Positions 48,536 to 64,000 are shown, counted from the stretch's first letter. The stretch: DNA of 64,000 nucleotides from Saprospiraceae bacterium UBA7687 (GCA_002482845.1 DLGT01000084.1:13157-77156), one strand, 5' to 3'. Numbers and translations: made by a program. Notes: generated by a model not told the origin, from the sequence alone.

Positions 48536-48942
48536 AATACTATACTTTAGGGCTACCTGTAAGTGTTAACAAATTATAATAATTGCGCAAAAATATAAAT
48601 AAGCGTCGACCTTTTACCCATCATTTGATACTTTTTATTATATAAATAATTAACACATCTGTATATAACTAGATATCAATATATTAAAATACAAATTAAA
48701 GTTTCTTATGCCACTACATTGTAATATCCATCCACCAATAATTTTATTTAGATTAATAAGTCAATTTCCATCATAATTTAGATTACTTGCTAGTTTTTAA
48801 AATCTTTGACGACAAAAGTGCAAAATAATTTCAGAATGTATTTAAATTTTAGACATTTGCATTGATTTATACTAAAGTAGGTAATTACCGTATATTTGAT
48901 TTTATTCATTATTAGTATTTTATTCATTATTAAATATCAGAA

Positions 48943-49761
48943 ATGTCTGTAGCTAAAAGAGATATCAAAAGAATTACGACACATGTTCTGCACGCAATGA
49001 AGGAACAAGGAGAAAAAATATCCATGTTGACCGCGTATGATTATTCGATGGCACGGATACTTGATGCTGCTGGAATAGATATATTATTGGTTGGGGATTC
49101 TGCGTCAAATGTTATGGCGGGCCACGAAACAACCCTTCCCATTACACTTGAGCAAATGATTTATCATGCACAATCAGTCATTCGGGCAGTGGAAAGAGCT
49201 TTTGTTGTTGTCGATCTGCCATTTGGGTCTTACCAAGGAAATAGTACAAAAGCACTTAACTCAGCGATAGCTATCATGAAAGAGTCAGGGGCACACGCCG
49301 TAAAACTGGAAGGTGGATCGGAAATAGAAGAGTCTGTAAGAAGAATTTTATCAGCAGGTGTACCTGTTATGGGACATTTAGGATTAACACCACAAAGTAT
49401 TTATAAATTCGGAACTTATTCTGTTAGAGCAAAAGAAGAAGCAGAAGCCCAGAAATTAATTAGTGATGCGAAATTACTTCAAGAAGCTGGTTGTTTTGCC
49501 TTAGTATTAGAAAAAATCCCTGCAAGTTTAGGCAAGCTTGTATCAGAAGCATTGCACATACCCGTAATAGGCATAGGAGCAGGTAACGGTACAGACGGAC
49601 AGGTTTTAGTCGTTCATGACGTCCTTGGACTTACAAAAGACTTTAACCCTAGATTCCTAAGAAGGTATTTGAACTTATATGATACTATCAAAGTCGCAGT
49701 GGAGCAATACATAGACGATGTTAAATCAGGCGATTTCCCTAATTCTGATGAACAATATTAA
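48943..49761 (+). CDS. panB: 3-methyl-2-oxobutanoate hydroxymethyltransferase
   Basis: '[13 protein letters not shown]', 'VKLEGG' and 'GHLGLTPQS'. Confidence 0.9.
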
Positions 49762-49782
49762 TACAATACGCATTTATCAAAT

Positions 49783-50814
49783 ATGTCAAAAAAAATAGTT
49801 ATAATACTTCTTGCTGTTTCAGCTTTAGTTGGTTTGGTTGGATATTTCTTTGTAGGTAGAGCTTTATGGAATGTAAATGTCAAATTACAAGACAAAACCG
49901 CTTTTATTGAAATACCTACAGATGCTTCCTTTGAAGATGTCAAAAATATATTTTTACAGAATAATTACTTAATTGATATTAATTCTTTTGATCGCGTTGC
50001 TACCATATTGGGTTATAAAAAGGATAAAGTACCTGGTGGCCGGTATAAGCTTCAAAATGGTTGGTCTAATAAAGATTTGATTACTACATTAAGATCAGGA
50101 AACCAGACACCGTCACAAGTTGTGATCAATAACATTAGAAAAATAAGTGATCTTGCAGGAAAAGCATCAAGATACTTTGAAACAGATTCATTGGGTTTTC
50201 TGACGCATTTTCTGAAACCAGAAACGCCATCTGAGTACAATCTTAATCAAGATAATTTTTTGACATTATTTATTCCAAATACATACGAAATGTTCTGGAC
50301 GACAACTCCTGAAAAATTTGTGACAAGAATGGCTAAAGAATATGAAAGATTTTGGACAGATGAAAGGGTAGAAAAATTAAAAAAATGGAACCTTTCTAAA
50401 ACTGATGCTTATATCCTAGCTTCCATTGTAGAGAAAGAAAGTAATTACGACCCAGAAAGACCAACTATTGCAGGTGTTTATCTCAATAGATTAAAAGTAG
50501 GCGAAAAACTGCAAGCCGACCCAACAGTAGTATATGCTGTAGGTGAATTCGACCTTAAAAGAGTTTTATACTCACATTTAGAATATGATTCACCTTATAA
50601 TACATACATGTATAATGGTTTACCACCTGGACCTATTTGTATGCCCTCCTTAGCAAGTCTTGAAGCCGTAATCAACGCTGAAGATCATGAGTATATGTTT
50701 TTCTGTGCCAAAGCAGATAATAGCGGTATTCATGCATTTGCAGTAACTTATGCAGATCACGTAAAGAATGCAAATGCATTTGCAGCTTGGATGAATAAAA
50801 ACAATATAAGGTAG
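49783..50814 (+). CDS. mltG: Endolytic murein transglycosylase MltG (YceG-like)
   Basis: N-terminal TM anchor, 'ASIVEKES', 'LQADPTVVYA' and 'SPYNTYMYNGLPPGPICMP'. Confidence 0.85.
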   Translation: MSKKIVIILLAVSALVGLVGYFFVGRALWNVNVKLQDKTAFIEIPTDASFEDVKNIFLQNNYLIDINSFDRVATILGYKKDKVPGGRYKLQNGWSNKDLITTLRSGNQTPSQVVINNIRKISDLAGKASRYFETDSLGFLTHFLKPETPSEYNLNQDNFLTLFIPNTYEMFWTTTPEKFVTRMAKEYERFWTDERVEKLKKWNLSKTDAYILASIVEKESNYDPERPTIAGVYLNRLKVGEKLQADPTVVYAVGEFDLKRVLYSHLEYDSPYNTYMYNGLPPGPICMPSLASLEAVINAEDHEYMFFCAKADNSGIHAFAVTYADHVKNANAFAAWMNKNNIR

Positions 50815-50874
50815 CATTTACCGAATAGCCTAGGATTAGCGTTGCGAAGACATTAAAATATGTTCCACAATTTT

Positions 50875-50915
50875 GGTTATCTATATCATTTTGGCCCAAA
50901 ATGTTATAGATAACC
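50875..50915. repeat. Long near-perfect hairpin downstream of mltG
   Basis: GGTTATCTATATCATTTTGG-c-CCAAAATGTTATAGATAACC, a 20-bp stem with one mismatch. Confidence 0.6.
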
Positions 50916-51064
50916 AAATCCCGAAAGGATGACAAGATTACAGAAATGTAATTATAAAAACATAAACTCAACCCTAAGGGATGACATGATCTGAATCTGC
51001 GCCCTTTATTTCCTATGCGTGACGCGCTAACTAAACTGGGTACGCAAATAAAATCATTAGCTTA

Positions 51065-51316
51065 TTACAAATTACTTCCATCTTTTTGGTCTAGGTATCT
51101 TCGTGCACCTCGTTTCTTTATTATCTTTTCTATTCGCAAGGCTTCTCTTTTATCTGCATTTACTTCCATGTGCAGGATCTCCCAATCTTTTGCTTTTGAT
51201 GTAAATCCACCATGATCTTGCATGTGACGTGCTAATCTATCACTAACTGACATAGAAGTAAAACCTACATAGTATTTTGATAGTAGTTTAGAATATAGAA
51301 TATAAACTGTATACAT
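51065..51316 (-). CDS. Small GIY-YIG nuclease-family protein
   Basis: 'MYTVYILYS..KYYVGFTS....R...H' N-terminal GIY-YIG pattern. The start is set at 51316 because the longer track ORF (51358) runs into a terminator hairpin. Confidence 0.7.
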   Translation of the reverse strand: MYTVYILYSKLLSKYYVGFTSMSVSDRLARHMQDHGGFTSKAKDWEILHMEVNADKREALRIEKIIKKRGARRYLDQKDGSNL

Positions 51317-51363
51317 TTTTCTTAGACTTAGCTTTTTGTTCAAAAAAAAAGAGTCCAACCTAT
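51242..51363. repeat. Left copy of the direct repeat (att-like) flanking the integrative element
   Basis: It is identical base for base to 63879-64000. Confidence 0.9.
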
Positions 51364-51377
51364 TTAAGATTGAACTC
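51342..51377 (-). terminator. Rho-independent terminator on the minus strand, straddling the end of the visible repeat
   Basis: The minus strand reads GAGTTCAA-tcttaaatagg-TTGGACTC followed by T9. Confidence 0.65.
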
Positions 51378-51707
51378 TCTGTTGTCGGGGCGGCAGTACT
51401 TACACCCTACCCTATTTTATTTTGCAACACACTGATATACAACCTTTAATAAATACATACTTATACTATCCTAAAAACAGATACCTAAACAGATACTTGG
51501 GTTAAAGAAATAAAGAACATTTGTGGTAATTAAAACTGTGATTATAGGGCTTTTGTTCATGGTAGTTTATAGCTAAAATCTGTAGTGTGGATTCTATTAA
51601 AAATGAATATTTATAGGATTTTACTCTCATATTCTACTAACATAATGGTTATTTATTACTTTTATGGTTTAATGTATATATGAGTATCTCTATCTAAAGT
51701 GAATATT

Positions 51708-54700
51708 ATGGGTTTATACCAAAGATCTGTGCTAAAGAATTATTTGTCTGCCTTAGATGATGTTAAAGTTAATGCTGCTTATAATGAGTTTAAAACATTT
51801 TTCTTTAACCCTGTCACACAGCAGAATATTAGAAACTCTAAGGAAGAGCAATTTCAGGAAGGTTTTCTTAGAGAGTTATTTGTTAAAATAATGGGTTATA
51901 CTCTAAATCCTGATGCTAACTACAACCTTATCTCTGAACAAAAGAATGTTAGTGATGCTAAGAAAGCTGATGGTGCTATCCTTATAGATGGTAAAGTAGT
52001 AGGTGTAATAGAGTTAAAAGGTACTAATACTATTGATCTAGGTAAAATACAACAGCAAGCATTTTATTATCTTAGTTCACACCCTGAAGCTGTATATGTC
52101 ATTACATCTAACTTTGAGAAGTTAAGATTTTATATACAGAAATCTAATGATTATGAAGAGTTTAACCTGTTTACACTTACCTTGGAAGAGTTTAAGTTAT
52201 TATACTTGTGTACTTCTTTAGACAGTATTAGTCATGGATTACCACTTAAGATAAAACAAGAATCACTTGTAAAGGAAGATGTGATCACCAAGCAGCTATA
52301 TAAAGATTATAGCAGTTTTAAGAGTGATTTGTTTAGTAGTCTATGTGACAGAAATAGCCAGATAGACAAACTTACTTTATTTAAAGCTACACAAAAGCTC
52401 ATAGATAGGTTTCTATTTATCTTCTTTTGTGAAGATAATAATGGGCTACTTCCTGCAAACTTAATTAGAACCATTGTTAACCACTGGAATAAAAATAGAG
52501 AATATGATGACTATAAGCCATTATATGAAATATTTAAAAAGTATTTTAGTTACATTAATATAGGCAGTAATAAGGTAGGTAGTATTCCAGAAATCTTTGC
52601 ATATAATGGTGGTTTATTTGCTGAAGATGTACTCTTAGATAAGTTGGACATAGATGACAATGTACTTTATACCCATACCCAAAAGTTAAGTGCTTATGAT
52701 TTTATAAGTGAAGTAGATGTGAATATTCTAGGGCATATATTTGAACACTCCCTAAATGATATAGAAGAGATACAAGCTGAAATAGCTGGTAATGTAGTAG
52801 ATAAGTCTAAAACTAAGCGTAAAAAAGATGGTGTCTTTTATACTCCTAAATACATCACAGAGTACATTGTAGAGAATACAATAGGTAAGCTATGTGCAGA
52901 TAAAAAAGCAGCACTAGAGATAGATGAAGATTTATTTGTAACAGCCACAACAAAAGCAAAGAGAGAACCACTTTTAGCTAAACTTAATGCTTATAAAAGC
53001 TACTTGCTAAGCATTACCATTTGTGATCCTGCTTGTGGTAGTGGTGCATTCTTAAACCAAGCTTATGTATTCTTACAAAAAGAACATCAGTATGTAGCAG
53101 ACCTAGAGAGTAAGTTATTTGATGCTCCTATGGTTATATCTGATGTAAGTGCAGACATCTTAGAGAACAATCTCTTTGGTGTAGATATAAATGAAGAGTC
53201 TGTAGAAATAGCTAGGTTAGCATTATGGTTGCGTAGTGCTAAAAAAGGTAGAAAACTAAATAATCTATCCAATAACATAAAGTGTGGTAATTCACTTATA
53301 GATGACCCTGAAGTAGCAGGTGATAAAGCTTTTAACTGGGAGAAAGAATTTCCACAGGTGTTTGCTAATGGTGGTTTTGATGTGGTGATAGGGAATCCAC
53401 CTTATGCAACAAAAATATTTACATCAGAAGAAAAAAATTACTATAAAAATAGTTTTATAGTTGCACAATATCAATTAGATCTTTACATTCTATTTATGCA
53501 AAAAGGTACAGATATTTTAAATAATAATTCTTACATAAGTTATATAACCCCAAACTCATGGTTAAAAAATTTAATGATGTCTGATTGCAGGCAATATCTA
53601 TTAGAAAATTTAACTTTTGAAATTATTTTACCTAATTTACCCAATGTATTTGTTGATGCTTCAGTTGATTCTATGATTTTTATAGGTAAAAAGGCAAAGG
53701 AAATGAATTCTATAATCAATATTAATGAAATTGTGGACAGCATCTTTATTACTAAACATGTTGTAGATCAAAATACATTTTATAATAATGATAAATATAT
53801 ATTTAATGTTGAAGCTAATGATAAAATAATAAAAATATTACAGAAATTAAACTCCCAGTCTGAAAAATTAGAAAACTACTTTGAAATAAGTAGAGGAATA
53901 AACCCATATGATAAATACAGAGGACAATCTAAAGAAATAATAGAGTCTAAGGCTTATCATGCAAATTTTAAAAAGGATGACACATTTGTCCCTGAAATAA
54001 GGGGCAAAAATATAAATAGGTATTTCTATAATTGGGATGGGTTTAGTCACATAAGTTATGGTCCATGGCTTGCAGCTTCAAGAGATGAAAAATATTTTAA
54101 TGGGGAAAGGATAGTCTTTAGACAAGTTCTAGGGGAAAGGTTAATTTGTACTGTTATAGAAGAAGAGTTAAAAATTGATCAAAGCATTTTTATTGCTAAA
54201 CCAATAGGAAATGATATAGGATGTAAGTATGTTATTTGCTTTCTAGGATCTAAGTTGGGGGCATTATATTTTAAATATACTTGCAATGAGTTTGACGAGC
54301 TTTTTCCTAAAATAAAGTTAGGGGAATTTAAAAATTTGCCAGTAAAAGTAATAGAAATACACAAACAGGCTAAATTTGTACTAAAAGCAGAAATAATGAT
54401 AAATTTTAATAAATTATCATTTAACAAACAATCTAAATTTATTTCCCGCATAAAATCTAGCTTTAATATAGAAAACATAACAGGCAAGTTAGAGAAGTTC
54501 TATGAGTATGATTTTAAGAGCTTTGTAGGTGAGCTAAAGAAACAGAAGGTAATATTATCACTTAAGGACCAAGATGAGTGGGAAGACTACTTTAATACCT
54601 ACAAACAGGAGATTAATATCCTACAAGCAGAGATAGTTAGGACAGATAAGGAGATAGATCAAATGGTGTATGAGCTGTATGGGTTAACTGATGAGGAGAT

Positions 54701-54722
54701 TAGGGTTGTGGAAGGTAATTAA
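51708..54722 (+). CDS. Single-chain type IIG/IIL restriction-modification enzyme (PD-ExK nuclease + gamma-class N6-adenine methyltransferase + target-recognition domain)
   Basis: N-terminal 'ADGAILIDGKVVGVIELKG' (D..ExK, MmeI-like layout with 'NFEKLRFY'), SAM motif I 'CDPACGSGAFL', motif IV 'VIGNPPYA', and a ~400-aa C-terminal region. A GTG at 51699 is an alternative start. Confidence 0.8.
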   Translation: MGLYQRSVLKNYLSALDDVKVNAAYNEFKTFFFNPVTQQNIRNSKEEQFQEGFLRELFVKIMGYTLNPDANYNLISEQKNVSDAKKADGAILIDGKVVGVIELKGTNTIDLGKIQQQAFYYLSSHPEAVYVITSNFEKLRFYIQKSNDYEEFNLFTLTLEEFKLLYLCTSLDSISHGLPLKIKQESLVKEDVITKQLYKDYSSFKSDLFSSLCDRNSQIDKLTLFKATQKLIDRFLFIFFCEDNNGLLPANLIRTIVNHWNKNREYDDYKPLYEIFKKYFSYINIGSNKVGSIPEIFAYNGGLFAEDVLLDKLDIDDNVLYTHTQKLSAYDFISEVDVNILGHIFEHSLNDIEEIQAEIAGNVVDKSKTKRKKDGVFYTPKYITEYIVENTIGKLCADKKAALEIDEDLFVTATTKAKREPLLAKLNAYKSYLLSITICDPACGSGAFLNQAYVFLQKEHQYVADLESKLFDAPMVISDVSADILENNLFGVDINEESVEIARLALWLRSAKKGRKLNNLSNNIKCGNSLIDDPEVAGDKAFNWEKEFPQVFANGGFDVVIGNPPYATKIFTSEEKNYYKNSFIVAQYQLDLYILFMQKGTDILNNNSYISYITPNSWLKNLMMSDCRQYLLENLTFEIILPNLPNVFVDASVDSMIFIGKKAKEMNSIININEIVDSIFITKHVVDQNTFYNNDKYIFNVEANDKIIKILQKLNSQSEKLENYFEISRGINPYDKYRGQSKEIIESKAYHANFKKDDTFVPEIRGKNINRYFYNWDGFSHISYGPWLAASRDEKYFNGERIVFRQVLGERLICTVIEEELKIDQSIFIAKPIGNDIGCKYVICFLGSKLGALYFKYTCNEFDELFPKIKLGEFKNLPVKVIEIHKQAKFVLKAEIMINFNKLSFNKQSKFISRIKSSFNIENITGKLEKFYEYDFKSFVGELKKQKVILSLKDQDEWEDYFNTYKQEINILQAEIVRTDKEIDQMVYELYGLTDEEIRVVEGN

Positions 54723-55570
54723 TTAACTTTTTTCTTCCCTAACTTAGAGATCTCTTTAAAATATGAAATTATGGTAAATATAATTACCATTAATGTAATA
54801 CCACAGCAAAAGAGAATAAAGGCACTCCAAAGACTAAAATTCCCAAAAAACAAACTAAGATTAAATATATTTAATGATTCATTATCCATTCCAATTCTAT
54901 ATAATAGAAGTAATAAAACTATCCATACTGTATTAAATAAAATCCTTAAAAACCCCAAAAGTGTTATAAATACAGGTTTCAAAAATGCTAACTTGTAGAA
55001 AACTTTAATAAAAGGTTTGATTGTGAAATCTAAATCTGTATTATAATTTATCTTAAATTTAGTATCTTTTAAACCTTCTGCGTTTATCACAAATACTAAT
55101 TCTTGGAAATTTGGTGTAGTTTCAGAACTAGATTTAAAATCTATTAGCACTAAATCTATTGTAAATTCTTCTTCTTCATTTAAATGGTTGAAATTAAAAA
55201 TAATCTCATTATTATCTGTAACATTATAATTTATTTCCTTTTCTTCTTCTTTAGTTATGGAACATTTTTCTAGAACTAATCCTTCAGGTATTTTAAAGGT
55301 TAAAGGTTTTGTAATATTACCAATTGGAGCGTTCCCAATATTTTTTATAGTAAATATAAAATTGTATATTTGGTTGATTTGCTTATCTTTATAGCTGATT
55401 TCTATATCATTCACGATATCTTTATCAACATAAATTACATGAGATGTAAAAATTTTTTCTATTATTAGCTTTTTAAATTTTGAGTTTTTATTCCAATATC
55501 CATTATTTAAATGACCTATAATATTTCCAATAATTAAAAATATTGCTCCAATTATAACATTTTCAAGCAT
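54719..55570 (-). CDS. Hypothetical membrane protein (1 N-terminal TM, ~150-aa beta-rich central domain, 3 C-terminal TM)
   Basis: Hydrophobic segments were read from the translation. Its stop codon overlaps the stop codon of the convergent R-M gene. No family was recognised. Confidence 0.5.
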   Translation of the reverse strand: MLENVIIGAIFLIIGNIIGHLNNGYWNKNSKFKKLIIEKIFTSHVIYVDKDIVNDIEISYKDKQINQIYNFIFTIKNIGNAPIGNITKPLTFKIPEGLVLEKCSITKEEEKEINYNVTDNNEIIFNFNHLNEEEEFTIDLVLIDFKSSSETTPNFQELVFVINAEGLKDTKFKINYNTDLDFTIKPFIKVFYKLAFLKPVFITLLGFLRILFNTVWIVLLLLLYRIGMDNESLNIFNLSLFFGNFSLWSAFILFCCGITLMVIIFTIISYFKEISKLGKKKVN

Positions 55571-55623
55571 TCTAGTATAAATTAGATTGCAAAGTTATGA
55601 ATTTAATATGTGATTATACAATA

Positions 55624-55654
55624 TAAAAGGGAGTAAATCCTAAAACTTACTCCC
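55624..55654 (-). terminator. Rho-independent terminator after the polymerase-like gene
   Basis: The minus strand reads GGGAGTAA-gttttaggat-TTACTCCC followed by TTTTAT. Confidence 0.65.
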
Positions 55655-55704
55655 AAATATTACTAACATAATGGTATTTTATGTATCTCTATTCTATACT
55701 TATA

Positions 55705-57345
55705 TTATATCCACTCTTCTATCTTAATGGTAGGTTCTGCTCCTATAACTTCTTTAATTGTCTGGTACATTTCTGCTTCTAGTGGTTCTTTGTACTCTGG
55801 GTTAGTAGCAATGGCATCATGTACAGTTAGTAAAGGTATCTCAGGATATTTTTCCTTCATGTTTTTACATATTACATCTAAGATTAAATGGCTCTCTATA
55901 CTTTGTAATAAAACAGCTAAAGTATTGGTACTATAAGGTATTCTTTTCCTGATACTTTCTCTTCTAGTGTGGGTAAACAGAACATTTATATCTTCAAACA
56001 TACTCATTACCTGTGGAAAGTGTAGCCTGAATATGTCACGTGCTAAACTTTCATGACTACTAGGATTGAAAAACAATGTAAAAGTGTGGTGTTTACCATC
56101 TGCTCTATCAAATTTCTTAAAATTCCTACCACTTTCACTTTTTAGTTGATTTAACTGTATAGCTAAAAATTCATAAATTTCACCATTTTTAACTAAGTGA
56201 AGGTATTGTTTAGTAGAAGGTAAGATATTCCCTGATTTATAGTTTTTAATTCTCTTAAATATACTACTATACAGTTGTTTATTTTCAGTCTTAAGGTTAC
56301 TAAGACATTTATTAAGAATACTACTTATGTTATGGTTGATTGGTCCTTCAGTGAATAATAAGGAGGATATAAATGGCTGTGAGTTTTTAAGATCACAACT
56401 TATAATTTCCTTTCCACGCAACCTTAAAAACTTTCTACACTGTGACTTTACGCCTAAAAATGATGTATGTAACCGTTGACTAGTACTGTCTTGTGTAAAA
56501 TATAAATGTTTATGATCTAACGCATGTATACTACTAATCCAGCTATTCTGTTTTCCCATTATTTTTGGGTCTGTCATAGATTTCTTTACTTTTTCATCCC
56601 CATATTTGTACTTGGTCCAAGACTTATCTCTATTTTTCTTAAAGTCTTTTATCACAGATTCTAAAGCTACTTCTTTTAAATCATTCATAATGTATTCTTG
56701 TGCTACAGTATAATTAGCAACAGAAACACTACAAAGATCTTCATAGAGAGAATTGTATTTGTTTATTGTGTTAGATTGTTCTTTTGTGTGTTTGTTAAAA
56801 TTCTTATAAACTGCTCCGCCCTTTTTATCATCACCATTATAATCTGGTATAAAATACTCACTCAAAGGGACATACCTATAAGCTGATGTAAATCTATATC
56901 CATAAGATTTCTCATTTGGAATGTAATAATTATCAGTTTCTATTAGACCCATTTCTAACAAGTAACTTAGATAGTAATTATAACCACGAACATATTTATC
57001 TAAGATGGTAGATGAAAATGGAACGTAGTCATCTATGTCAGAACCATCCATTTGCATATTTCTTGCAACAGCTTTTACTAAAAGACTTAAAATAGTGGCT
57101 ACCTTGTCTTCTTGCTGATGAATATTGTTTACACATGAAGCTAACTCAGGTGGGTGGTTAACTAACAACTTTCTAATATCCACATTGGAAGGTATTAGAA
57201 TAGATATAGCTTTATTAGCAGCTTTTTTTAATAATGGTTTGCACCTTTTTTTATTTTCAAACTCTTTAACAATATCTGGTGTGTTGATATTATAAGGTAC
57301 TTTAGGACACACTTTTGGTCCCATAAATAGACAATCTGTTACCAT
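55705..57345 (-). CDS. Family-A (Pol I / T7 RNAP-like) polymerase-motif protein, minimal size
   Basis: Motif A 'IISCDLKNSQPFISSLL' (D318), motif B 'RADGKHHTFTLFF' (R414, K418), motif C 'LLTVHDAI' (H509-D510), and the pre-motif-A 'SQRLHTSF'. Alignment was by eye only. Confidence 0.5.
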   Translation of the reverse strand: MVTDCLFMGPKVCPKVPYNINTPDIVKEFENKKRCKPLLKKAANKAISILIPSNVDIRKLLVNHPPELASCVNNIHQQEDKVATILSLLVKAVARNMQMDGSDIDDYVPFSSTILDKYVRGYNYYLSYLLEMGLIETDNYYIPNEKSYGYRFTSAYRYVPLSEYFIPDYNGDDKKGGAVYKNFNKHTKEQSNTINKYNSLYEDLCSVSVANYTVAQEYIMNDLKEVALESVIKDFKKNRDKSWTKYKYGDEKVKKSMTDPKIMGKQNSWISSIHALDHKHLYFTQDSTSQRLHTSFLGVKSQCRKFLRLRGKEIISCDLKNSQPFISSLLFTEGPINHNISSILNKCLSNLKTENKQLYSSIFKRIKNYKSGNILPSTKQYLHLVKNGEIYEFLAIQLNQLKSESGRNFKKFDRADGKHHTFTLFFNPSSHESLARDIFRLHFPQVMSMFEDINVLFTHTRRESIRKRIPYSTNTLAVLLQSIESHLILDVICKNMKEKYPEIPLLTVHDAIATNPEYKEPLEAEMYQTIKEVIGAEPTIKIEEWI

Positions 57346-57492
57346 TGGTAATTATTTAAAATTTTAATAAATATACTATGATTGAATTAGTGATTTTGTA
57401 GCTTAACCAAATACGCTATGGTTAAAAATCTCTAAAACAGAATGCAAAGTTATGTTGCTTCATTAACTTTTAGGTGTATTCAGAAGATCAAC

Positions 57493-57513
57493 TTATCCAC
57501 AGATTGTGGATAA
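57493..57513. promoter_or_regulatory. Inverted pair of perfect DnaA boxes (candidate origin or DnaA-controlled promoter)
   Basis: TTATCCACA-gat-TGTGGATAA, a 21-bp perfect palindrome 148 nt upstream of the polymerase-like gene. Confidence 0.6.
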
Positions 57514-57574
57514 AATCATAACGTTTTGATTATTATTAATTTAGAAATGTTAGTTTTTAGCTGAAATTACAGAT

Positions 57575-58360
57575 TTAATTACAGTTGCAGTTGGAATTTG
57601 TTAAATACTCATTAAAACTTTCACCATAAGAGTCTCCAGCATTATCTACAAATTCATTCCAATCACCATAGTTAATATCACAATACACATATTTTTTACT
57701 ACTTGAAGTAAACTCCACTACTAAGTAATATAATCCTTCATATTCATACAGTGCTATGTAATCTAAGGCAGAACTATTCATGTCTGAATCATCTAAATCA
57801 GATATTAAATCTCCATCATCCACTACCGTTTCTAATATTTCTGTGCAAGACATGTCTGCAATATCTGCTGTCTCATCATCTTCATCACTATTTTCATCAC
57901 TATTTTCATAGTTACTGTAGTATGTGTTAGAATTAGATGAATTATTACTACTAGAAGTAGTGTTTTGTACCAAATAAATTATTCCAAATCCTAGACCACA
58001 TAAGAAAGAAAATGGTAGGAAAGTACTATATGCTAATGTAAAGTTGGTTTTTATTTCCGTGATGTCATTACCACACTGTGAACTTAATAAAGCTAATTCA
58101 TCTGTAATATCATCCTTATAAGCATACCATGCCCCTATAAAAATGAGGATACTAAAGAAACCAACTAATGAATATGTAACATTATCATTTGAAATATTTA
58201 TGAATTCCTTACAAAATATATAAAACAGAAATATTGCCATAAAAATGACTGTGCTATGGATAATTAGCTTGGATAAACGAAAAATAATGTTAAATAAAAT
58301 TAAAAAAGCGTATGCTGGTATTTTAAGTAGATAAAATGGAAACTGGATAATTTTTAACAT
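57575..58360 (-). CDS. Membrane protein with acidic linker and C-terminal KTSC-like domain
   Basis: About 4-5 N-terminal TM segments and an Asn/Ser/Asp/Glu-rich linker. The C-terminal 'IALYEYEGLYYLVVEFTSSSKKYVYCDINYGDWNEF..AGDSYGESFNEYL' resembles the KTSC pattern. Confidence 0.5.
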   Translation of the reverse strand: MLKIIQFPFYLLKIPAYAFLILFNIIFRLSKLIIHSTVIFMAIFLFYIFCKEFINISNDNVTYSLVGFFSILIFIGAWYAYKDDITDELALLSSQCGNDITEIKTNFTLAYSTFLPFSFLCGLGFGIIYLVQNTTSSSNNSSNSNTYYSNYENSDENSDEDDETADIADMSCTEILETVVDDGDLISDLDDSDMNSSALDYIALYEYEGLYYLVVEFTSSSKKYVYCDINYGDWNEFVDNAGDSYGESFNEYLTNSNCNCN

Positions 58361-58389
58361 TGGTAAAAGTTTTAATTTGGTTAGATTGG

Positions 58390-58752
58390 TTATCCTTTAA
58401 TATAAATACTATAAACATACATTTGGTCTGACACTTCACTTATCAACGCAATACTTTCTTTATTTATTAGGAAATACATAATATTACCTTTAGGATTAAT
58501 TGTTTTATAAGTAGTTATATTATTGTCTGTAGCATTATCTATATCTATTACTTTAAATTCCATAGGTACTAAATTGTTTCCCACGAACCATTCTACAGCA
58601 TCCTTTTTAACTGTAAACTTATTAAGTTTGTATTCCTTAGATGTACTTTCATTAAGTTTTAAGTCTCTTATAGTGCGGTAGTTTGTGAAATATGTTTGTG
58701 CTGTGCAAAGGCTTGCATAAAATAGTAATATGGATGTAATTAATAATTTCAT
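58390..58752 (-). CDS. Small secreted hypothetical protein
   Basis: Signal peptide MKLLITSILLFYASLCTAQ. No family was recognised. Confidence 0.5.
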   Translation of the reverse strand: MKLLITSILLFYASLCTAQTYFTNYRTIRDLKLNESTSKEYKLNKFTVKKDAVEWFVGNNLVPMEFKVIDIDNATDNNITTYKTINPKGNIMYFLINKESIALISEVSDQMYVYSIYIKG

Positions 58753-58773
58753 TTATTTTCTTGGTTATAGGAT

Positions 58774-59514
58774 TTAATCAATTAGATTTTCTGCAAGTAA
58801 ACTTTCATAAAGGGTTTTATAATTATTAATTGAACCAATATAGCCATAAATATCAATATTATCTTTTAAATAATTTTTTAATAAATCTGGAACATTTTCA
58901 AATTTATCCATCTTAAATTGCATAAATCTATTTGTATAGAATTTAAATTTTTCAATATCTTTTTCTTTCCCAAAATATGTAGCTGCTGATAATAAAGTCC
59001 ATGTATAATATTGATCTAGATTAAAACAGTAATTTGGTCTATCATATCTACGTAGAATAATTTCTGAATAAGCTTTTTCTGCTGATTTTATTAAAAATTC
59101 ATTACTTGAAGTATTTTTTATTATAAATGAAATTTTTAATACATGTGCAATTGCAATTAATATTCTGGGCTCATCATTTGTGTCGTCAACATAAGAATAA
59201 GCTAATGAATAAAATTCAAATGCTGTTTTCCAATCATTTTGTATCATTGTAAAATACCCTAAACTTATATACATTAGAAACTTATCTTTAATAAATTCAA
59301 CAACATCAAGAATTATCATTGTGTAAGCAGTCTTATTGTCAAAAGTGCTATTAGTATGCCTATCTTGTAGGTATTGATTTAAGCTTACTAATAATTTATC
59401 TGATAATCCTAGATTACTTTTTAAGGATTGATATGAATATTTATTTGCAATACCTTTGTTGGTTTCATCTACTGCTATTTCTAAGAATGTCTTTGTTTTG
59501 AATAAGTTGAACAT
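58774..59514 (-). CDS. Hypothetical cytoplasmic all-helical (TPR-like?) protein
   Basis: It is the first gene of the minus-strand operon and is divergent from the Xre gene. No motif was recognised. Confidence 0.45.
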   Translation of the reverse strand: MFNLFKTKTFLEIAVDETNKGIANKYSYQSLKSNLGLSDKLLVSLNQYLQDRHTNSTFDNKTAYTMIILDVVEFIKDKFLMYISLGYFTMIQNDWKTAFEFYSLAYSYVDDTNDEPRILIAIAHVLKISFIIKNTSSNEFLIKSAEKAYSEIILRRYDRPNYCFNLDQYYTWTLLSAATYFGKEKDIEKFKFYTNRFMQFKMDKFENVPDLLKNYLKDNIDIYGYIGSINNYKTLYESLLAENLID

Positions 59515-59527
59515 AAATTGTTTTTCA

Positions 59528-59535
59528 CAAATATA
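59528..59535 (-). promoter_or_regulatory. Candidate -7 promoter box (TATATTTG on minus strand) for the cargo operon
   Basis: Exact TAnnTTTG match 13 nt upstream of the ATG at 59514 and immediately downstream of the palindromic operator. Confidence 0.4.
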
Positions 59536-59540
59536 ATACA

Positions 59541-59558
59541 GTTATCAAATATGATAAC
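59541..59558. promoter_or_regulatory. Palindromic operator candidate for the Xre-family regulator
   Basis: GTTATCA-aata-TGATAAC, with perfect 7-bp arms, in the 91-bp divergent intergenic region. Confidence 0.55.
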
Positions 59559-59605
59559 CATTATGGGGTAATTATTTAAAAACTTGGCAGATAATTTACA
59601 TCTGC

Positions 59606-59818
59606 ATGGATAAAGATGATTTCTTAAAGCATTTAGGTCACAATATAAAAACGTTGCGTGAATCTAAAGGTATATCTCAGCAAAAACTTGCTGCGGATTG
59701 TAACTTTGAGAAGTCTAATATGAGTAGAATAGAAGCAGGTAATACAAATCCTACAATATATACATTGTACAAAATTGCATTAGCTATGGATGTAGAAATC
59801 CATGAGTTGCTAAAATAA
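59606..59818 (+). CDS. Xre-family helix-turn-helix transcriptional regulator
   Basis: 70 aa. 'IKTLRESKGISQQKLAADCNFEKSNMSRIEAGNTNPTIYTLYKIALAMDV' is a canonical HTH_3/Cro-CI pattern. Confidence 0.85.
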   Translation: MDKDDFLKHLGHNIKTLRESKGISQQKLAADCNFEKSNMSRIEAGNTNPTIYTLYKIALAMDVEIHELLK

Positions 59819-59852
59819 AAGGGAGGCTACAGATGTAATACTCCCTTTCTTG
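59819..59852 (+). terminator. Terminator-like hairpin after the Xre gene
   Basis: Stem AAGGGAG / CTCCCTT followed by TCTTG; the T-run is weak. Confidence 0.5.
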
Positions 59853-60057
59853 TGCTTCCTTTCAGTGGTTTGTTGATGTAGCAGTAACCTTCTCAAAAGA
59901 ACTGGTACTAAAAAATACAGCATAACTGCTTGTAGATTCTATCTTAATTTGTAACATTAATCCATATATGCTATGAACATAGACTATTTTTACCACATAG
60001 TAATGGTGTAAATTGATGTTAATTACCAAATGTGCATTTGTAACTAGATGGAGATTA

Positions 60058-61014
60058 TCAGGATATTAAATACCATGAATCATGTCCTGTATCTAGACTT
60101 CCTACAAGATGTGAGAAAAATTGCCCTACCGCTACATTATTATCAACTATAGTGTCTAGGTAAGATGACTTTAATGATGCAGTAAATAGATTGTATAAGG
60201 ACCATAAATCTATTGCCCCATGTACACTGCTAAAATTTGCATCATGATAATATTGTTTTGTGACTGTAGTGAGCTGTGAATCATTTAATCCACAGTTTAG
60301 AAGTAGTTTTTTGTGCTCTCTAGGTAGATAATTAGACATTCTACATCTACCTAATAAATGAGCAAACTGCCTTTCTGACAATGTATAATTACTCAGGTTA
60401 CTCATAAATGTCAGGTTGGGTAATGGCTCATAGGATGATATAATATTGCGTAATGTGCTAGATAATGCGTCTATAGAGTTAACTAAAATAGCATTATTTA
60501 TACCATCGGACCAAACACAAAGATTGCTGCAAACCTTAACTTGAAACCCTATAAAGAAAGTAAAATGCTGCATGGCATTACTATTTCTATTTAAGTTATC
60601 TTTATTATATGCCTTCACACCACCTATAACCAACTTAAGTTCTTGCCCATTAATCACTTTTGTGATAGAAGGTATAACATAAACAAACATCATACGCTCA
60701 TAATATAGCGTTTCTTCTTGTGGTAAAAGTTCATGTACTTTTTTAAACCTTGCAGATGGTACTCTACCGCGTACTGGATGGGAAACTCTAATATATGGTC
60801 CTAGTATGTCATTAGCATGGATTTCACTCAGCACATTTTGTGTAGCATATATAAATTCATGCTGACTTATGAGTGCATGATTATCCTTAGTAAATACAGG
60901 AATAATATGATTACGTTCCATCTCATGAAGATATACAGGTAGAGTATTTGCTTCTATAAAAGGTAATGTAACATCTTCTTGATTTAGAAATGTATTAGTG
61001 GTTTGTAATTCCAT
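60058..61014 (-). CDS. Hypothetical MGE protein (possibly DUF3871-like)
   Basis: It overlaps the upstream ATPase gene by 20 nt, which suggests translational coupling. 'FTFFIGFQVKVCSNLCVW' resembles what I recall of DUF3871; this is unverified. The start is set at MELQTT (61014). Confidence 0.4.
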   Translation of the reverse strand: MELQTTNTFLNQEDVTLPFIEANTLPVYLHEMERNHIIPVFTKDNHALISQHEFIYATQNVLSEIHANDILGPYIRVSHPVRGRVPSARFKKVHELLPQEETLYYERMMFVYVIPSITKVINGQELKLVIGGVKAYNKDNLNRNSNAMQHFTFFIGFQVKVCSNLCVWSDGINNAILVNSIDALSSTLRNIISSYEPLPNLTFMSNLSNYTLSERQFAHLLGRCRMSNYLPREHKKLLLNCGLNDSQLTTVTKQYYHDANFSSVHGAIDLWSLYNLFTASLKSSYLDTIVDNNVAVGQFFSHLVGSLDTGHDSWYLIS

Positions 61015-61852
61015 TTTGTAAATTATTATTTGGTGATAAAATAGATGATGTAAGAAGTGTCTTTTTTGCAATAAATTCTGCTTCTAAAACAGGATAATAA
61101 GCTGTGTAGGACTTGTAAATCTCTGTTAGTTGCTGCAAATTTGTGGCATTATCTATTAAAGATTTAACTCTATCCTTAGAAACCCCTGAAAGACACCATT
61201 CTAGTATTTTATTACCAGTAATAGTAGTGATTTTAAAAGGTGGTAAATCAGCAAATAAACCAGTTCTATCCTTAGATGATTTAGCAAAATGGTTTATATC
61301 TAATTCTAGTACAATGGTAAACTCATAATCTATACCATCACGCATAATAGTTTTAAGTCCTACTTTCTCAGGGCTTAGCTTACCATTTCCCTTATCTTGT
61401 AAAACATAATCTTGTTTTACTCTAATGGTAACTATAATATGTGATGTAGATGAAAGTATCTTAGTAATAAGATCATTAATCCTAGGGGTGATCTTGGACC
61501 AATTAGTGAAGGAATTACCAGCAAGACCTGCATGATAGTCTAATAAATACTCCCAACACTGTGACAAACCATCTATAATTATACAACTAACACCTTCCTT
61601 TTCTGCAAGTTCTATGGCTTGGATGTATCTCTCAGGTGTAAATGGTTTTGTAAGTGGAATTACTTTGTACTCACCAATATGAGCATATAAGTCAGCACTT
61701 CCATTTTCTGTATCAATTACACAAATATCTGAATAGACACCAACTAAACCATATGCCATTAATATAGCACTAAAAGTTTTACCAGACCCTGCTGGTCCTT
61801 GTAAAGCTAATTTTATTTTAGCTTGTTTGCGTTCTGCTTTACGTACAATCAT
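60995..61852 (-). CDS. AAA_24 / Sak4-like RecA-fold ATPase
   Basis: Walker A 'GPAGSGKTF', Walker B 'CIIIDGLS', and a late 'SSKDRTGLF' typical of phage Sak4-like ATPases. Confidence 0.75.
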   Translation of the reverse strand: MIVRKAERKQAKIKLALQGPAGSGKTFSAILMAYGLVGVYSDICVIDTENGSADLYAHIGEYKVIPLTKPFTPERYIQAIELAEKEGVSCIIIDGLSQCWEYLLDYHAGLAGNSFTNWSKITPRINDLITKILSSTSHIIVTIRVKQDYVLQDKGNGKLSPEKVGLKTIMRDGIDYEFTIVLELDINHFAKSSKDRTGLFADLPPFKITTITGNKILEWCLSGVSKDRVKSLIDNATNLQQLTEIYKSYTAYYPVLEAEFIAKKTLLTSSILSPNNNLQNGITNH

Positions 61853-61875
61853 AATAGAATAAATTATTTAAGGTT

Positions 61876-61911
61876 AAAAAAAAAGGAGTACCCCATTTCT
61901 GGAATACTCCC
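61876..61911 (-). terminator. Rho-independent terminator between the 131-aa gene and the ATPase gene
   Basis: The minus strand reads GGAGTA-ttccagaaatgggg-TACTCC followed by T9. Confidence 0.7.
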
Positions 61912-61932
61912 ATTTGTTAATAGTAACAGCTA

Positions 61933-62328
61933 TTAAGCTTCAGCAACTACATGATTGCCATTACTACTAAAAACGTTAAGATTAGGAATCAACGGTGCTA
62001 CATTTGCTGGCTTTTGTTGTACCACTGTTTGCTCCATTGGTGAATAAGTGTATCTATGAGACAAGTTTACAACTTCTCCTGTTTCAGGAATAGTGTACTC
62101 ATAAGAATCACATTGTTCCTTTACAATAGATCCTGTCATTTGTTTACCTACCATCAATGCAGCTGTATTTTCATTAAAAGTAGATGAAATACTGCATGAT
62201 CTAGTGGTTGCATAAAATTTGCCAGTTTCTTTAGACTGGACCATTTCTAAATCCCCTTGTAATACAAGAGTTACAAATGAACTACCATCTTTGGTTGTTC
62301 TTACAGAGTAATTTGCTACTGTTACCAT
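61933..62328 (-). CDS. Small hypothetical MGE protein
   Basis: The start is set at MVTVANYSV (62328). The longer track ORF begins inside a C-rich leader. No family was recognised. Confidence 0.45.
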   Translation of the reverse strand: MVTVANYSVRTTKDGSSFVTLVLQGDLEMVQSKETGKFYATTRSCSISSTFNENTAALMVGKQMTGSIVKEQCDSYEYTIPETGEVVNLSHRYTYSPMEQTVVQQKPANVAPLIPNLNVFSSNGNHVVAEA

Positions 62329-62546
62329 AACTAATAAAATTTTGTGATTAATAAAAGGGGGGGACATCTTTCCTACCCACAGGATAGCCGGGGGTGTTAT
62401 GTACCACGATTAGAAACATAGTTACATTTAAGAAACTGTAATATTAGATAGATAACATCAGATAAACAGATAAGAACTATAATACACCATTATATTAGTA
62501 GAATTTAGGAGTAGAATCAGTGTTTTTGTTAAATATGACAATTACA

Positions 62547-63743
62547 TCACTTACTAAAAATATCAAACAAACTGCCTACATGCTGATCTAATAAATCATT
62601 AGTTACTTCTGCATAATGCTTTTCTGTAATTTTAGTATTAGAATGACCTAGTAAGGTAGATGCTACTTTAAGTGGTATGTTATTGCCTAGTAGGACAGTA
62701 GTAGTAAAGGTCTTGCGTGCAAGGTGTGTTGTAAGGTGTGCATTTAAATTAATTTCTATAGCTAACTCCTTAAGATATTCATTATACTTTTGATTAGAAA
62801 GTACAGGTAGGACACCATCATACTTATTCCATATCTTTTGTGCAGGTGGTAGCATAGGTATTAGGAAATTCTTATGTGTTTTTTGACGCTTCATGGTTAT
62901 CCATGTAATACCATTTTTAACAATGATGTTATCCATAGATAATGCTGCTATTTCAGCATAAGCTAGACCACTATAGCATGAGAATATAAAGCAATCCCTT
63001 ACTTTTGTTAATTTCTCTGTTAAGTTACCTGCATTTTCTACACATGCTAACTGGTCCTTTGTAAGATAAACAATAGTTGTGGTAACATTCTTAGATTTGT
63101 GCAGCAGCCAAGGGTCTTTATCTACATATTCTCTCCCAAGCGCATACTTAATTATTTGCTTTAGAAGCTGTACAGATTTGTTTATGGTGACTTGTTTATG
63201 CTTTAATACAGATAAACAGAACTCTTCATATTCTAGTAAATGCTTTAGTCTTAGGTCACTTAAAATGATATCCTTAGTGTTATAATACTGCTTCACAAAG
63301 TCTTTAAAGCTATTGCAAACAGTAATATACTTCTGTACTGTACGTTTCTGTAACTGTTCTCCTACTGCTTTATAAGCTTGTGAGATATACAGATTGTATA
63401 CTTCTACATATCCCATAGTTTTAACCACTGTGTTATAATGTTCAGGCTTGCACAAGAGTAGGTTTGCTATTTGTTGTAAATTTACTTCATGGTCATGTGA
63501 ATATATGTCTAGTAGTTGTTTATGGAGTTTCTGCTTCCATAGTTCTAAAATGTTGCTCTTAAGGGCATCATTAACAATCTGATACTTATTACCATCCCAA
63601 TCTGATGGATTTACTTTAATACTTGTGGAGATAATTTTTAAATGGTCCCCATAAAATAGTTTGCAATAGATAGGTGCTAAGCCTTTTCTATTAGTTTTGC
63701 TTTTGTAAATAAAAAGCTGATAATTAATACTTCCAATTTTCAT
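62547..63743 (-). CDS. int: Tyrosine site-specific integrase (Bacteroidota type with N-terminal arm-binding domain)
   Basis: Catalytic region 'HLARKTFTT...LLGHSNTKITEKHY' (R..HxxR..Y), a SAM-like middle domain, and the N-terminal 'KSKTNRKGLAPIYCKL'. Confidence 0.9.
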   Translation of the reverse strand: MKIGSINYQLFIYKSKTNRKGLAPIYCKLFYGDHLKIISTSIKVNPSDWDGNKYQIVNDALKSNILELWKQKLHKQLLDIYSHDHEVNLQQIANLLLCKPEHYNTVVKTMGYVEVYNLYISQAYKAVGEQLQKRTVQKYITVCNSFKDFVKQYYNTKDIILSDLRLKHLLEYEEFCLSVLKHKQVTINKSVQLLKQIIKYALGREYVDKDPWLLHKSKNVTTTIVYLTKDQLACVENAGNLTEKLTKVRDCFIFSCYSGLAYAEIAALSMDNIIVKNGITWITMKRQKTHKNFLIPMLPPAQKIWNKYDGVLPVLSNQKYNEYLKELAIEINLNAHLTTHLARKTFTTTVLLGNNIPLKVASTLLGHSNTKITEKHYAEVTNDLLDQHVGSLFDIFSK

Positions 63744-63878
63744 GATAAAAAATTTAGAAGTATCTGTTAGGGTTCACTTTAAAGTAGAATACCTGTATGG
63801 ATACCTAAATGGATACTGAAAATGCTATAATTACTTATTTAATAGAAATTACAATCTATAAATAAAAATTATCATTTT

Positions 63879-63953
63879 ACTAACTGACATAGAAGTAAAA
63901 CCTACATAGTATTTTGATAGTAGTTTAGAATATAGAATATAAACTGTATACAT
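63879..63953 (-). pseudogene. Duplicated 5' fragment (first 25 codons) of the GIY-YIG gene inside the right repeat
   Basis: The sequence is the same as 51242-51316. Downstream of the repeat the frame diverges into island DNA. Confidence 0.6.
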
Positions 63954-64000
63954 TTTTCTTAGACTTAGCTTTTTGTTCAAAAAAAAAGAGTCCAACCTAT
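63879..64000. repeat. Right copy of the direct repeat (att-like), truncated by the window end
   Basis: It is identical to 51242-51363. Confidence 0.9.

Follow-up and report, generated by a model that had tools for sequence, protein, structure and literature searches.

A 64,000-nucleotide stretch of DNA from Saprospiraceae bacterium UBA7687 (GCA_002482845.1 DLGT01000084.1:13157-77156; here G000:C96:13157-77156), hereafter the window, probably contains a site-specific integrative island of a tRNA-Pro-targeting tyrosine-integrase family in Bacteroidota. We give this reading a probability of about 0.8. The island comprises 12,482 bp plus one 155-bp copy of an attachment (att) site, and its genome of origin, G000, is a bin from a 2013 biofilm metagenome. 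An earlier note, made from the sequence alone, had proposed an integrase-bearing mobile element. That proposal now has four supports: the att repeats; an empty site in the related genome G024; a contig in which the two island ends are joined; and relatives with the same layout. The family is called tRNA-Pro-targeting because two relatives with 64%-identical integrases (in metagenome contig L025 and genome G008) lie directly behind tRNA-Pro(GGG), and because candidate integrase arm-type sites are conserved among them.

Boundaries of the island

A repeat search of the window confirmed the perfect 122-bp repeat described in the earlier note: positions 51242-51363 and 63879-64000 are identical at 122 of 122 positions, with an offset of 12,637. 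As that note had expected, the true repeat is longer. Following the contig sequence past the window end extends exact identity to 155 bp (51242-51396 and 63879-64033). This repeat, termed R, has no leftward extension, and identity stops abruptly at either end. An exact repeat of 155 bp is far above chance expectation. As a circle with one R copy, the island measures 12,637 bp. Its guanine-plus-cytosine content is 29.5%, versus 33.8-34.3% in the flanks. The boundary features are as follows.

51397..63878 (no strand): island proper, 12,482 bp; G024 lacks it between these flanks
51242..51396 (no strand): left R copy (attR), corresponding to the single copy at the G024 empty site
63879..64000, on to 64033 beyond the window (no strand): right R copy (attL), followed by the rest of a pseudo-tRNA, here B
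51348..51380 (minus): intrinsic terminator hairpin and T-run, inside R
51385..51396 (minus): tRNA-Pro-type last 12 nt, CTGCCGCCCCGA on the minus strand, the probable crossover segment
51477..51498 (minus): P-arm candidate integrase arm-type sites, AGTATCTGTTTAGGTATC on the minus strand, 18/18 identical and at the same position in L025
63759..63818 (minus): P'-arm candidate arm-type sites, three 11-bp-phased RGTAYCC units and an inverted unit, conserved in G000, L025, and G008

Read on the minus strand, R contains three elements: the last 12 nt of a tRNA-type sequence; a terminator; and the upstream region plus codons 1-25 of a small GIY-YIG gene. The minus-strand terminator predicted in the earlier note is borne out by folding: the stem runs 51380->51348 and is followed by a T-run, with a minimum free energy of -18 kcal/mol and z = -3.45. 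The GIY-YIG assignment likewise stands (PF01541, E = 2.9e-12), and the right copy carries exactly codons 1-25, as stated there. The 12-nt CTGCCGCCCCGA segment is identical to the 3' end of tRNA-Pro(UGG) in G024. Both the G000 and L025 elements are bounded by direct repeats that include the 3' part of a tRNA: the 155-bp R, with 12 nt of tRNA; and the 59-bp tRNA-Pro repeat of L025.

One feature of attL merits separate mention. At 63879-63980, the truncated GIY-YIG gene forms an open 34-codon frame, made up of 25 native codons and nine from island DNA. This frame lies behind an intact copy of the promoter region and is directed towards the integrase gene.

Empty site and joined ends

The earlier note had named in advance a test for the island: an empty site with a single repeat copy in a related genome. 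G024 contains such a site. Its sequence is 95-97% identical over the flanks, and the flanks 48000-51396 and 63880-64435 overlap in one R copy with nothing between them. A second relative, G011 (91-94% identity), has one GIY-YIG unit behind a real tRNA-Pro.

Logan contigs of four sequencing runs, the source run X1 and three others (X2, X3, and X4), were compared with locus L058 (G000:C96:63600-77590; window coordinate equals L058 position plus 50443). X2, X3, and X4 each contain a relative's chromosome contig that is island-free and has one unit fewer. (Uncovered island stretches in these three runs carry no information.)

X3, an independent activated-sludge run, also yielded a 1,495-bp contig that proceeds from the integrase gene (62601-63882) through R into the left end of the island (51250-51460). 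The contig extends 64 nt past R, and its alignment jumps back by 12633. This junction has the attP configuration: either a circle or a tandem junction. The contig also shows R in its entirety to be a stable component of the element. Element pieces in X3 have a depth of 11.4, versus 6.3 for the related chromosome contig.

Depth in the source run is 8.9 for the flanks, 9.4-9.7 for the island, and 20.7 for R, which is a single unitig. Because R (155 bp) is longer than the word length, the source unitigs are blind to the difference between the integrated and excised states. The 100% identity of the two R copies may in part be an assembly product of this one collapsed unitig. A further joint in X1 (1235->4743) was set aside, as one of its sides has only 25 letters.

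Related elements

The closest counterpart, in metagenome contig L025, has the same gene order: tRNA-Pro(GGG), integrase (64% identity), p144 (67%), AAA_24 ATPase (74%), DUF3871 protein (66%), helix-turn-helix regulator (79%), p546 (47%), and restriction-modification enzyme (61%). This element spans 16.7 kb between perfect 59-bp repeats of the tRNA 3' part. The contig includes the whole tRNA and chromosomal DNA upstream, and is devoid of the GIY-YIG fragment. G008 has tRNA-Pro(GGG) and, beginning 145 bp behind it, an integrase of 64% identity. In G320, a 41%-identical integrase, p144, and the AAA_24 gene follow tRNA-Met.

Four IMG/VR contigs (L060-L063) have in common the four-gene block of integrase, p144, AAA_24, and DUF3871; one of them, L062, adjoins tRNA-Asn. 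In L060, a D5-type primase-helicase replaces p546, and genes for a nuclease, an SbcC-like protein, and a methylase are present. No capsid, terminase, portal, or other structural gene was matched in L060. (Positions 7864-8535 of that contig encode a 224-aa GIY-YIG/HNH-type homing endonuclease, adjoining the primase-helicase.) IMG/VR contained no match to the integrase alignment or to the 24-mer of the attR junction.

The integrase clade is rare: two of 43 genomes of the genus carry it, and the 401 genomes of the order yielded one more relative (42% identity). An integrase search of genome contigs found no related loci. On this evidence, the elements form a family of small islands that integrate at tRNA genes: the core is constant, the replication gene varies, and the cargo is of the defence type. 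Neither a family with the integrase, p144, AAA_24, and DUF3871 core nor any element with DUF3871 was found described in the literature.

Anatomy of the attachment sites

Comparison of G000 and L025 narrows the probable site of strand exchange. The identity block in L025 extends from about tRNA position 18 to +1 (or +2), and that in G000 from about tRNA position 65 to +143. What the two blocks have in common is confined to the final 12-14 nt of the tRNA (CTGCCGCCCCGAC vs CAGTCGTCCCGAC). Exchange must lie within the identity block of each element, which places it, most likely, in these 12-14 nt at the tRNA 3' end.

The candidate arm sequences are non-coding, and are kept between elements whose integrases have only 64% identity. 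Between P arm and tRNA end, the two elements have comparable spacing (95 vs 108 nt). The P' arm lies about 204 nt from the tRNA end in G000 and about 72 nt in L025; the difference corresponds to the terminator plus the GIY-YIG fragment.

Two further candidates at the att site were rejected. A decayed tRNA-Pro(GGG) remnant just upstream of R in attP gave a Smith-Waterman score of 11 (p = 0.4-0.7 against shuffles), and the terminator hairpin as a T-arm-mimic core site also scored 11 (p = 0.6).

The 143 bp of R outside the tRNA sequence probably passed from host to element, because GIY-YIG genes occur in 20 of the 43 genus genomes, the integrase in two of 43, and L025 is without the GIY-YIG fragment. 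The arrangement of GIY-YIG gene and tRNA-Pro is chromosomal. The GIY-YIG promoter copy faces the integrase gene in the circular and integrated states alike. That it drives the integrase is speculation.

Target locus

The earlier note had concluded that the target is not an obvious tRNA. This conclusion does not hold: the gene ended by the terminator is a tRNA-Pro-derived pseudo-tRNA (Rfam, 37.5 bits), and the relatives lie behind tRNA-Pro. The tRNA target escaped notice because attR retains no more than 12 nt of the pseudo-tRNA, which itself is located immediately beyond the window. The chromosomal features on the attR side are two.

51065..51316 (minus): GIY(a), intact GIY-YIG gene, 83 aa, catalytic domain only (PF01541, E = 2.9e-12)
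50990..51060 (minus): degenerate pseudo-tRNA C, resembling a decayed tRNA-Pro and closing the cassette array; aligns with pseudo-tRNA B

Pseudo-tRNA B occupies window coordinates 64022-64105 and matches the Rfam tRNA model at positions 5-66. Its 5' acceptor strand is missing and its anticodon arm is remodelled; ARAGORN makes no call for it in G000, nor for pseudo-tRNA C. The gap-free G024 locus supplies the full arrangement: tRNA-Val(GAC), tRNA-Ser(GCU), tRNA-Pro(UGG), terminator, GIY(b), pseudo-tRNA, terminator, GIY(a), degenerate pseudo-tRNA, and mltG. The true tRNA-Pro thus lies one unit upstream of the occupied copy, and the pseudo-tRNAs share with tRNA-Pro(UGG) the D-arm, the T-arm, and the 3' acceptor strand.

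Past pseudo-tRNA B, and beyond 64112, the G000 contig contains a second complete GIY-YIG gene, a terminator, and a two-N gap fused to the 5' half of tRNA-Ser(GCU). Because the G024 locus includes both, this gap hides tRNA-Pro and half of tRNA-Ser. The N gaps fall exactly at repeat boundaries: NN at 64436-64437, the gap that conceals tRNA-Pro(UGG) and the tRNA-Ser 3' half; and N19 at 64716-64734, inside tRNA-Val(GAC). Only 29 tRNAs are assembled in the G000 bin, with zero tRNA-Pro.

Tandem cassette units at the G000 locus have a period of about 411 bp. A third copy of R (98%) lies at about 64290-64410, one such period further along. The G000 genome contains only three GIY-YIG copies or fragments, all at this locus.

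GIY-YIG genes of this kind were surveyed across the genus (loci L029, L031-L047, L053, L054, and L057). They encode about 75-85 aa, lie 50-70 bp behind co-oriented tRNA genes, and are present in the 20 of 43 genomes mentioned above. The majority are preceded by tRNA-Pro(UGG), the last member of a Val-Ser-Pro cluster (in 10 of the loci examined, with the gene directly behind it), and paralogs come after tRNA-Asp, tRNA-Met, and tRNA-Lys. Tandem arrays of 2-7 units are frequent: G018 has 5-7 copies with a period of about 375 bp; G058, G017, and G024 have two each. A pseudo-tRNA between units was found only in the G000/G024 lineage. No description of tRNA-linked GIY-YIG genes in Bacteroidota was found in the literature.

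Two side observations concern this locus and its counterparts. In L034 (G045:C21), tRNA-Pro(UGG) is separated from the GIY-YIG gene by five sequences resembling tRNAs (positions 1986-2919), which match the Rfam model over its full length at 34-47 bits. Four of the five are reported by ARAGORN, as 'tRNA-???' with two-letter anticodons. In the window, a 23-nt inverted repeat (50872-50918; 96% complementary, 1-nt loop) lies directly downstream of mltG and is kept in G024. It may be a bidirectional terminator or an element of the REP (repetitive extragenic palindromic) type.

Gene content and candidate replication module

The island encodes the following, from the integrase end inward.

62547..63743 (minus): tyrosine integrase, 398 aa, with Arm-DNA-bind_5, Phage_int_SAM_5, and Phage_integrase domains (phrog_1, E = 4.7e-29)
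61933..62367 (minus): p144, small protein of the integrase-p144-AAA_24-DUF3871 block, conserved in L025, L059-L063, and L065
60995..61852 (minus): AAA_24 ATPase, Sak4-like (PF13479, E = 5.9e-17; phrog_1366, E = 1.3e-72; phrog_124)
60058..61014 (minus): DUF3871 protein, 318 aa (PF12987, E = 7.8e-88)
59606..59818 (plus): Xre-type helix-turn-helix regulator, 70 aa (PF01381, E = 5.9e-11), 79% identical in L025
57575..59514 (minus): three genes of 261, 120, and 246 aa, open reading frames (ORFs) without family matches
57493..57513 (no strand): inverted pair of perfect DnaA boxes, TTATCCACA, a 21-bp palindrome and candidate origin, 148 nt upstream of p546
55705..57345 (minus): p546, divergent family-A (Pol I/T7-like) polymerase-fold protein, candidate replicase
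54719..55570 (minus): 283-aa protein without family match
51699..54722 (plus): type IIG restriction-modification enzyme, 1007 aa, cargo (PF07669, E = 1.6e-42; TaqI_C and MmeI domains)

The integrase gene (63743->62547) starts 135 bp from R, as the earlier note had it, and 278 bp from the tRNA end. The protein matches PF00589, PF13102, and PF17293. Residues R249, H340, R343, H367, and Y377 are invariant across three homologs and constitute the catalytic residues of tyrosine recombinases. The Xre-type gene is divergent from the three genes of 261, 120, and 246 aa. The restriction-modification enzyme also matches REase_MTase_IIG in PADLOC (E = 8.8e-257). The DUF3871 protein has 1,468 homologs, and all the named ones are from Bacteroidota. 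Its structural model (predicted local distance difference test score, pLDDT, 82) retrieved nothing below 1e-3 in Foldseek; the best VIA-wide Z of 7.5 is at background, leaving it without a structural relative. Neither p144 nor the 283-, 261-, 120-, and 246-aa proteins had a family or Protein Data Bank (PDB) match, even at E = 5.

The 546-aa protein p546 has no Pfam match and no PDB match by sequence. Only about 30 homologs were found at E < 1e-5 among 5.8 billion proteins. Its AlphaFold (AF2) model has a pLDDT of 85.9, and the top 50 Foldseek matches are all family-A DNA polymerases (E about 1e-6 to 1e-5). VIA Z scores of 13-15 over 270-300 residues were obtained with Pol theta, apicoplast Pol, and the Taq, Bst, and T7 DNA polymerases, and with mitochondrial RNA polymerase. 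Residues invariant in the homolog alignment include D318, K418, and H509-D510. The predicted structure thus has the palm-fingers-thumb fold of family A together with the acidic residues of motifs A and C. Distant homologs of p546 (24% identity) adjoin tRNA-Met and an integrase in a Rickettsiales metagenome-assembled genome (L019 and L020).

The window contains four DnaA-box matches, versus 1.0 expected, and two of the four form the palindrome upstream of p546. The modelled polymerase fold and the adjoining palindrome together make a candidate replication-type module. The earlier suggestion of a self-replicating integrative element or a satellite is strengthened in its first half by this module, in which p546 has a family-A fold; the second half is weighed below.

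No capsid, portal, terminase, or tail gene was matched among the island ORFs (PHROGs, Pfam). No family match to a relaxase, Mob, or type IV secretion system protein was found for any island ORF (Pfam, PHROGs, NCBIfam), five ORFs having no assignment. The earlier statement that recognisable relaxase, capsid, and terminase genes are lacking is accordingly upheld in Pfam and PHROGs. At 12.5 kb, with five ORFs (120-283 aa) without assignment, the island is too small for a tailed phage.

Alternative explanations

Several observations weigh against a chromosomal island moved by its integrase. The integrated order in G000 comes solely from the original scaffold, and the double depth of R in X1 fits two copies, attL plus attR or attB plus attP alike. 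The attP-type junction is one Logan contig rather than raw reads, and it may instead represent a tandem junction. R includes only 12 nt of tRNA, and the occupied copy is pseudo-tRNA B rather than a functional tRNA gene. By analogy with L025, an integrase complex of that kind would need to tolerate an insertion of about 130 nt here. Finally, no excisionase was recognised in the island.

Some of these points would suit an episome: a circular plasmid-like or satellite replicon that shares 155 bp with the chromosome and was threaded into it by the assembler through the collapsed repeat. The X1 unitigs break at both ends of R, whose double depth is predicted by both states; X3 contains the joined-ends form only, at a depth of 11.4 versus 6.3 for the chromosome; the element includes a polymerase-fold gene and a DnaA-box palindrome; and the scaffold has N gaps at neighbouring repeats. 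We nevertheless consider an episome unlikely. Source depth is about 1:1 (element 9.4-9.7, flanks 8.9), the scaffold is free of N across both R copies, and the N gaps it has elsewhere point to scaffolding by read pairs. Moreover, relatives are integrated, as in L025 with its whole tRNA and chromosomal DNA upstream. An episome, too, would count as an integrase/att element, observed in its alternative state. A circular element might instead have entered the chromosome by RecA-dependent homologous recombination through at least 155 bp of homology, without the integrase. Perfect identity over 155 bp suffices for this; R retains just 12 nt of the ancestral tRNA target, the P' arm is displaced by about 130 nt relative to L025, and the site is a pseudo-tRNA. 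This route nonetheless seems distinctly unlikely. The intact integrase has conserved catalytic residues, each end retains its arm sites, the same attP configuration recurs in a second sample, and the distance from P arm to tRNA is conserved. (Integrase and homologous recombination yield the same sequence outcome.)

The repeat could also have arisen when the GIY-YIG array was duplicated, segmentally or in tandem, with no connection to the integrase. Tandem units with a period of about 411 bp, a third copy at 98%, and arrays of 2-7 units in the genus are all in keeping with such an origin. It is refuted, to the point of being extremely improbable, by the G024 empty site, X3, and the L025 repeat: the right copy ends exactly at codon 25 and abuts the integrase arm sites; the empty-site boundaries are precise; the ends are joined in X3; and relatives lie at tRNA-Pro with their own repeats. 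A different question is the route of transfer. The element might be a phage satellite of the PICI, P4, or VEIME type, packaged by a helper after excision and replication; this is compatible with an integrative island, and we regard it as possible though short of probable. The size (12.6 kb), an integrase next to att, a divergent Xre gene, replication-type genes, defence cargo, and the lack of structural genes all suit a satellite. So do the core-block relatives in IMG/VR viral contigs, among them L060 with its D5-type primase-helicase and no capsid, terminase, or portal match. Against this, capsid-remodelling, small-terminase, cos, and pac features were not recognised in the island, and there is no known helper. 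Membership in IMG/VR may reflect only the integrase and AAA_24, and no description of a phage satellite in Bacteroidota was found in the literature.

A model for integration

The preferred reading, a site-specific integrative island, suggests the following model. The integrase clade targets tRNA-Pro 3' ends. In G000, the island occupies the second unit of an array whose minus-strand order is tRNA-Pro(UGG), terminator, GIY(b), pseudo-tRNA B, terminator, GIY(a), and pseudo-tRNA C. Strand exchange presumably occurs within 12-14 nt at the tRNA 3' end, and the remaining approximately 143 bp would be host flank captured into attP. The attP site carries 155 bp identical to the host: the 12-nt tRNA-type end; the terminator; and the GIY-YIG promoter plus 25 codons. 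Because attP includes this sequence, pseudo-tRNA and GIY-YIG gene both remain intact after integration. The excised circle would replicate through its own module, and the captured GIY-YIG promoter would read towards the integrase gene. The conserved core comprises the tyrosine integrase, p144, AAA_24 ATPase, and DUF3871 protein, to which the G000 lineage adds p546 and the DnaA-box palindrome. Accessory genes are the Xre regulator, four genes without assignment, and the type IIG restriction-modification enzyme.

A more far-reaching version, which we find rather doubtful, holds that these are small integrative episomes of Bacteroidota replicating by a minimal and hitherto unrecognised family-A-type polymerase, p546. 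A piece of a selfish, tRNA-linked GIY-YIG cassette would reside in attP, each new cassette copy would serve as a landing pad, and the captured promoter would drive the integrase gene. If this is true, a mobile element parasitises the spread of another selfish element, rather than the tRNA gene as such.

Together, these results provide a fully bounded example of a Bacteroidota island family, in which the empty site, the form with joined ends, and candidate arm sites have all been identified. The comparison of two relatives narrows the probable crossover, and so offers a testable integrase/att pair in a phylum with few genetic tools. An attP site can apparently take up some 143 bp of flanking host sequence, which in this case belongs to a GIY-YIG cassette. 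Island finders based on tRNA genes would miss cases such as this one, in which the island lies at a pseudo-tRNA. The type IIG restriction-modification cargo and the defence-type genes of the relatives fit with small integrative elements as carriers of defence systems.

Comparison with known systems

The G000 island is a tRNA-targeting tyrosine-integrase island, a known kind. Its unusual aspects are a 155-bp att site with only 12 nt of tRNA, a pseudo-tRNA within a cassette array as target, a candidate replicase with the polymerase-A fold, and a core gene set not found described.

In Bacteroides, the IntN1-type integrases of NBU1 and NBU2 use a core of 13-14 bp at the extreme 3' end of a tRNA, and the probable crossover segment in G000 matches the position of this core. 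Conjugative transposons are required by the NBU elements, which have a mobilisation gene and an oriT. The G000 island, unlike them, has no relaxase or Mob match (Pfam, PHROGs). Haemophilus phage HP1 exhibits long identity between attP and a tRNA operon (182 bp), and host genes are restored after integration. HP1, however, is a complete phage, and what its identity block spans are tRNA genes, not the 5' end of a protein gene.

The P4-like elements and PICIs (PMC10085698) and the marine VEIMEs (PMC9618062) are likewise small elements with an integrase; they have regulators, their own replication genes, and defence cargo but no structural genes. In contrast to the G000 island, these described satellites do not have p144, DUF3871, and p546 as their core; packaging-redirection genes and a helper are not known here.

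The target array, as distinct from the island itself, resembles tRNA-linked GIY-YIG cassettes: in each unit, a tRNA is followed by a small GIY-YIG gene with a partial, remodelled tRNA copy, and units have multiplied in tandem. In tRNA genes, the motif recognised by the SegB endonuclease of phage T4 is the T-psi-C stem-loop (PMC2330249). A phage homing endonuclease, SegB is larger and has a DNA-binding part, whereas the 83-aa GIY-YIG proteins here are known from sequence.

The 10K island of Riemerella anatipestifer, likewise from Bacteroidota, is about 10 kb long, with an IntN1-like tyrosine integrase behind tRNA-Arg and a 53-bp repeat (PMC6764341). Its excision to a circle, and integration by integrase plus attP alone, have been shown (PMC6764341). 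Read from the printed sequence, the 53-bp repeat appears to include a hairpin and T-run (PMC6764341). The two islands differ in target (tRNA-Arg vs tRNA-Pro) and repeat length (53 vs 155 bp), and a polymerase-like gene is not reported in 10K.

Islander tDNA islands have the integrase at the tRNA-proximal end, a regenerated target, and a displaced 3' fragment at the far end (PMC4383910). The G000 island resembles them in its tyrosine integrase at the tRNA-proximal end, its precise boundaries, and the empty sites in relatives. It differs in its displaced fragment, in which only 12 nt of tRNA are joined to 143 nt of downstream flank, in its target, which is a pseudo-tRNA in a cassette array, and in its integrase, which lies 278 bp from the tRNA end rather than beside it.

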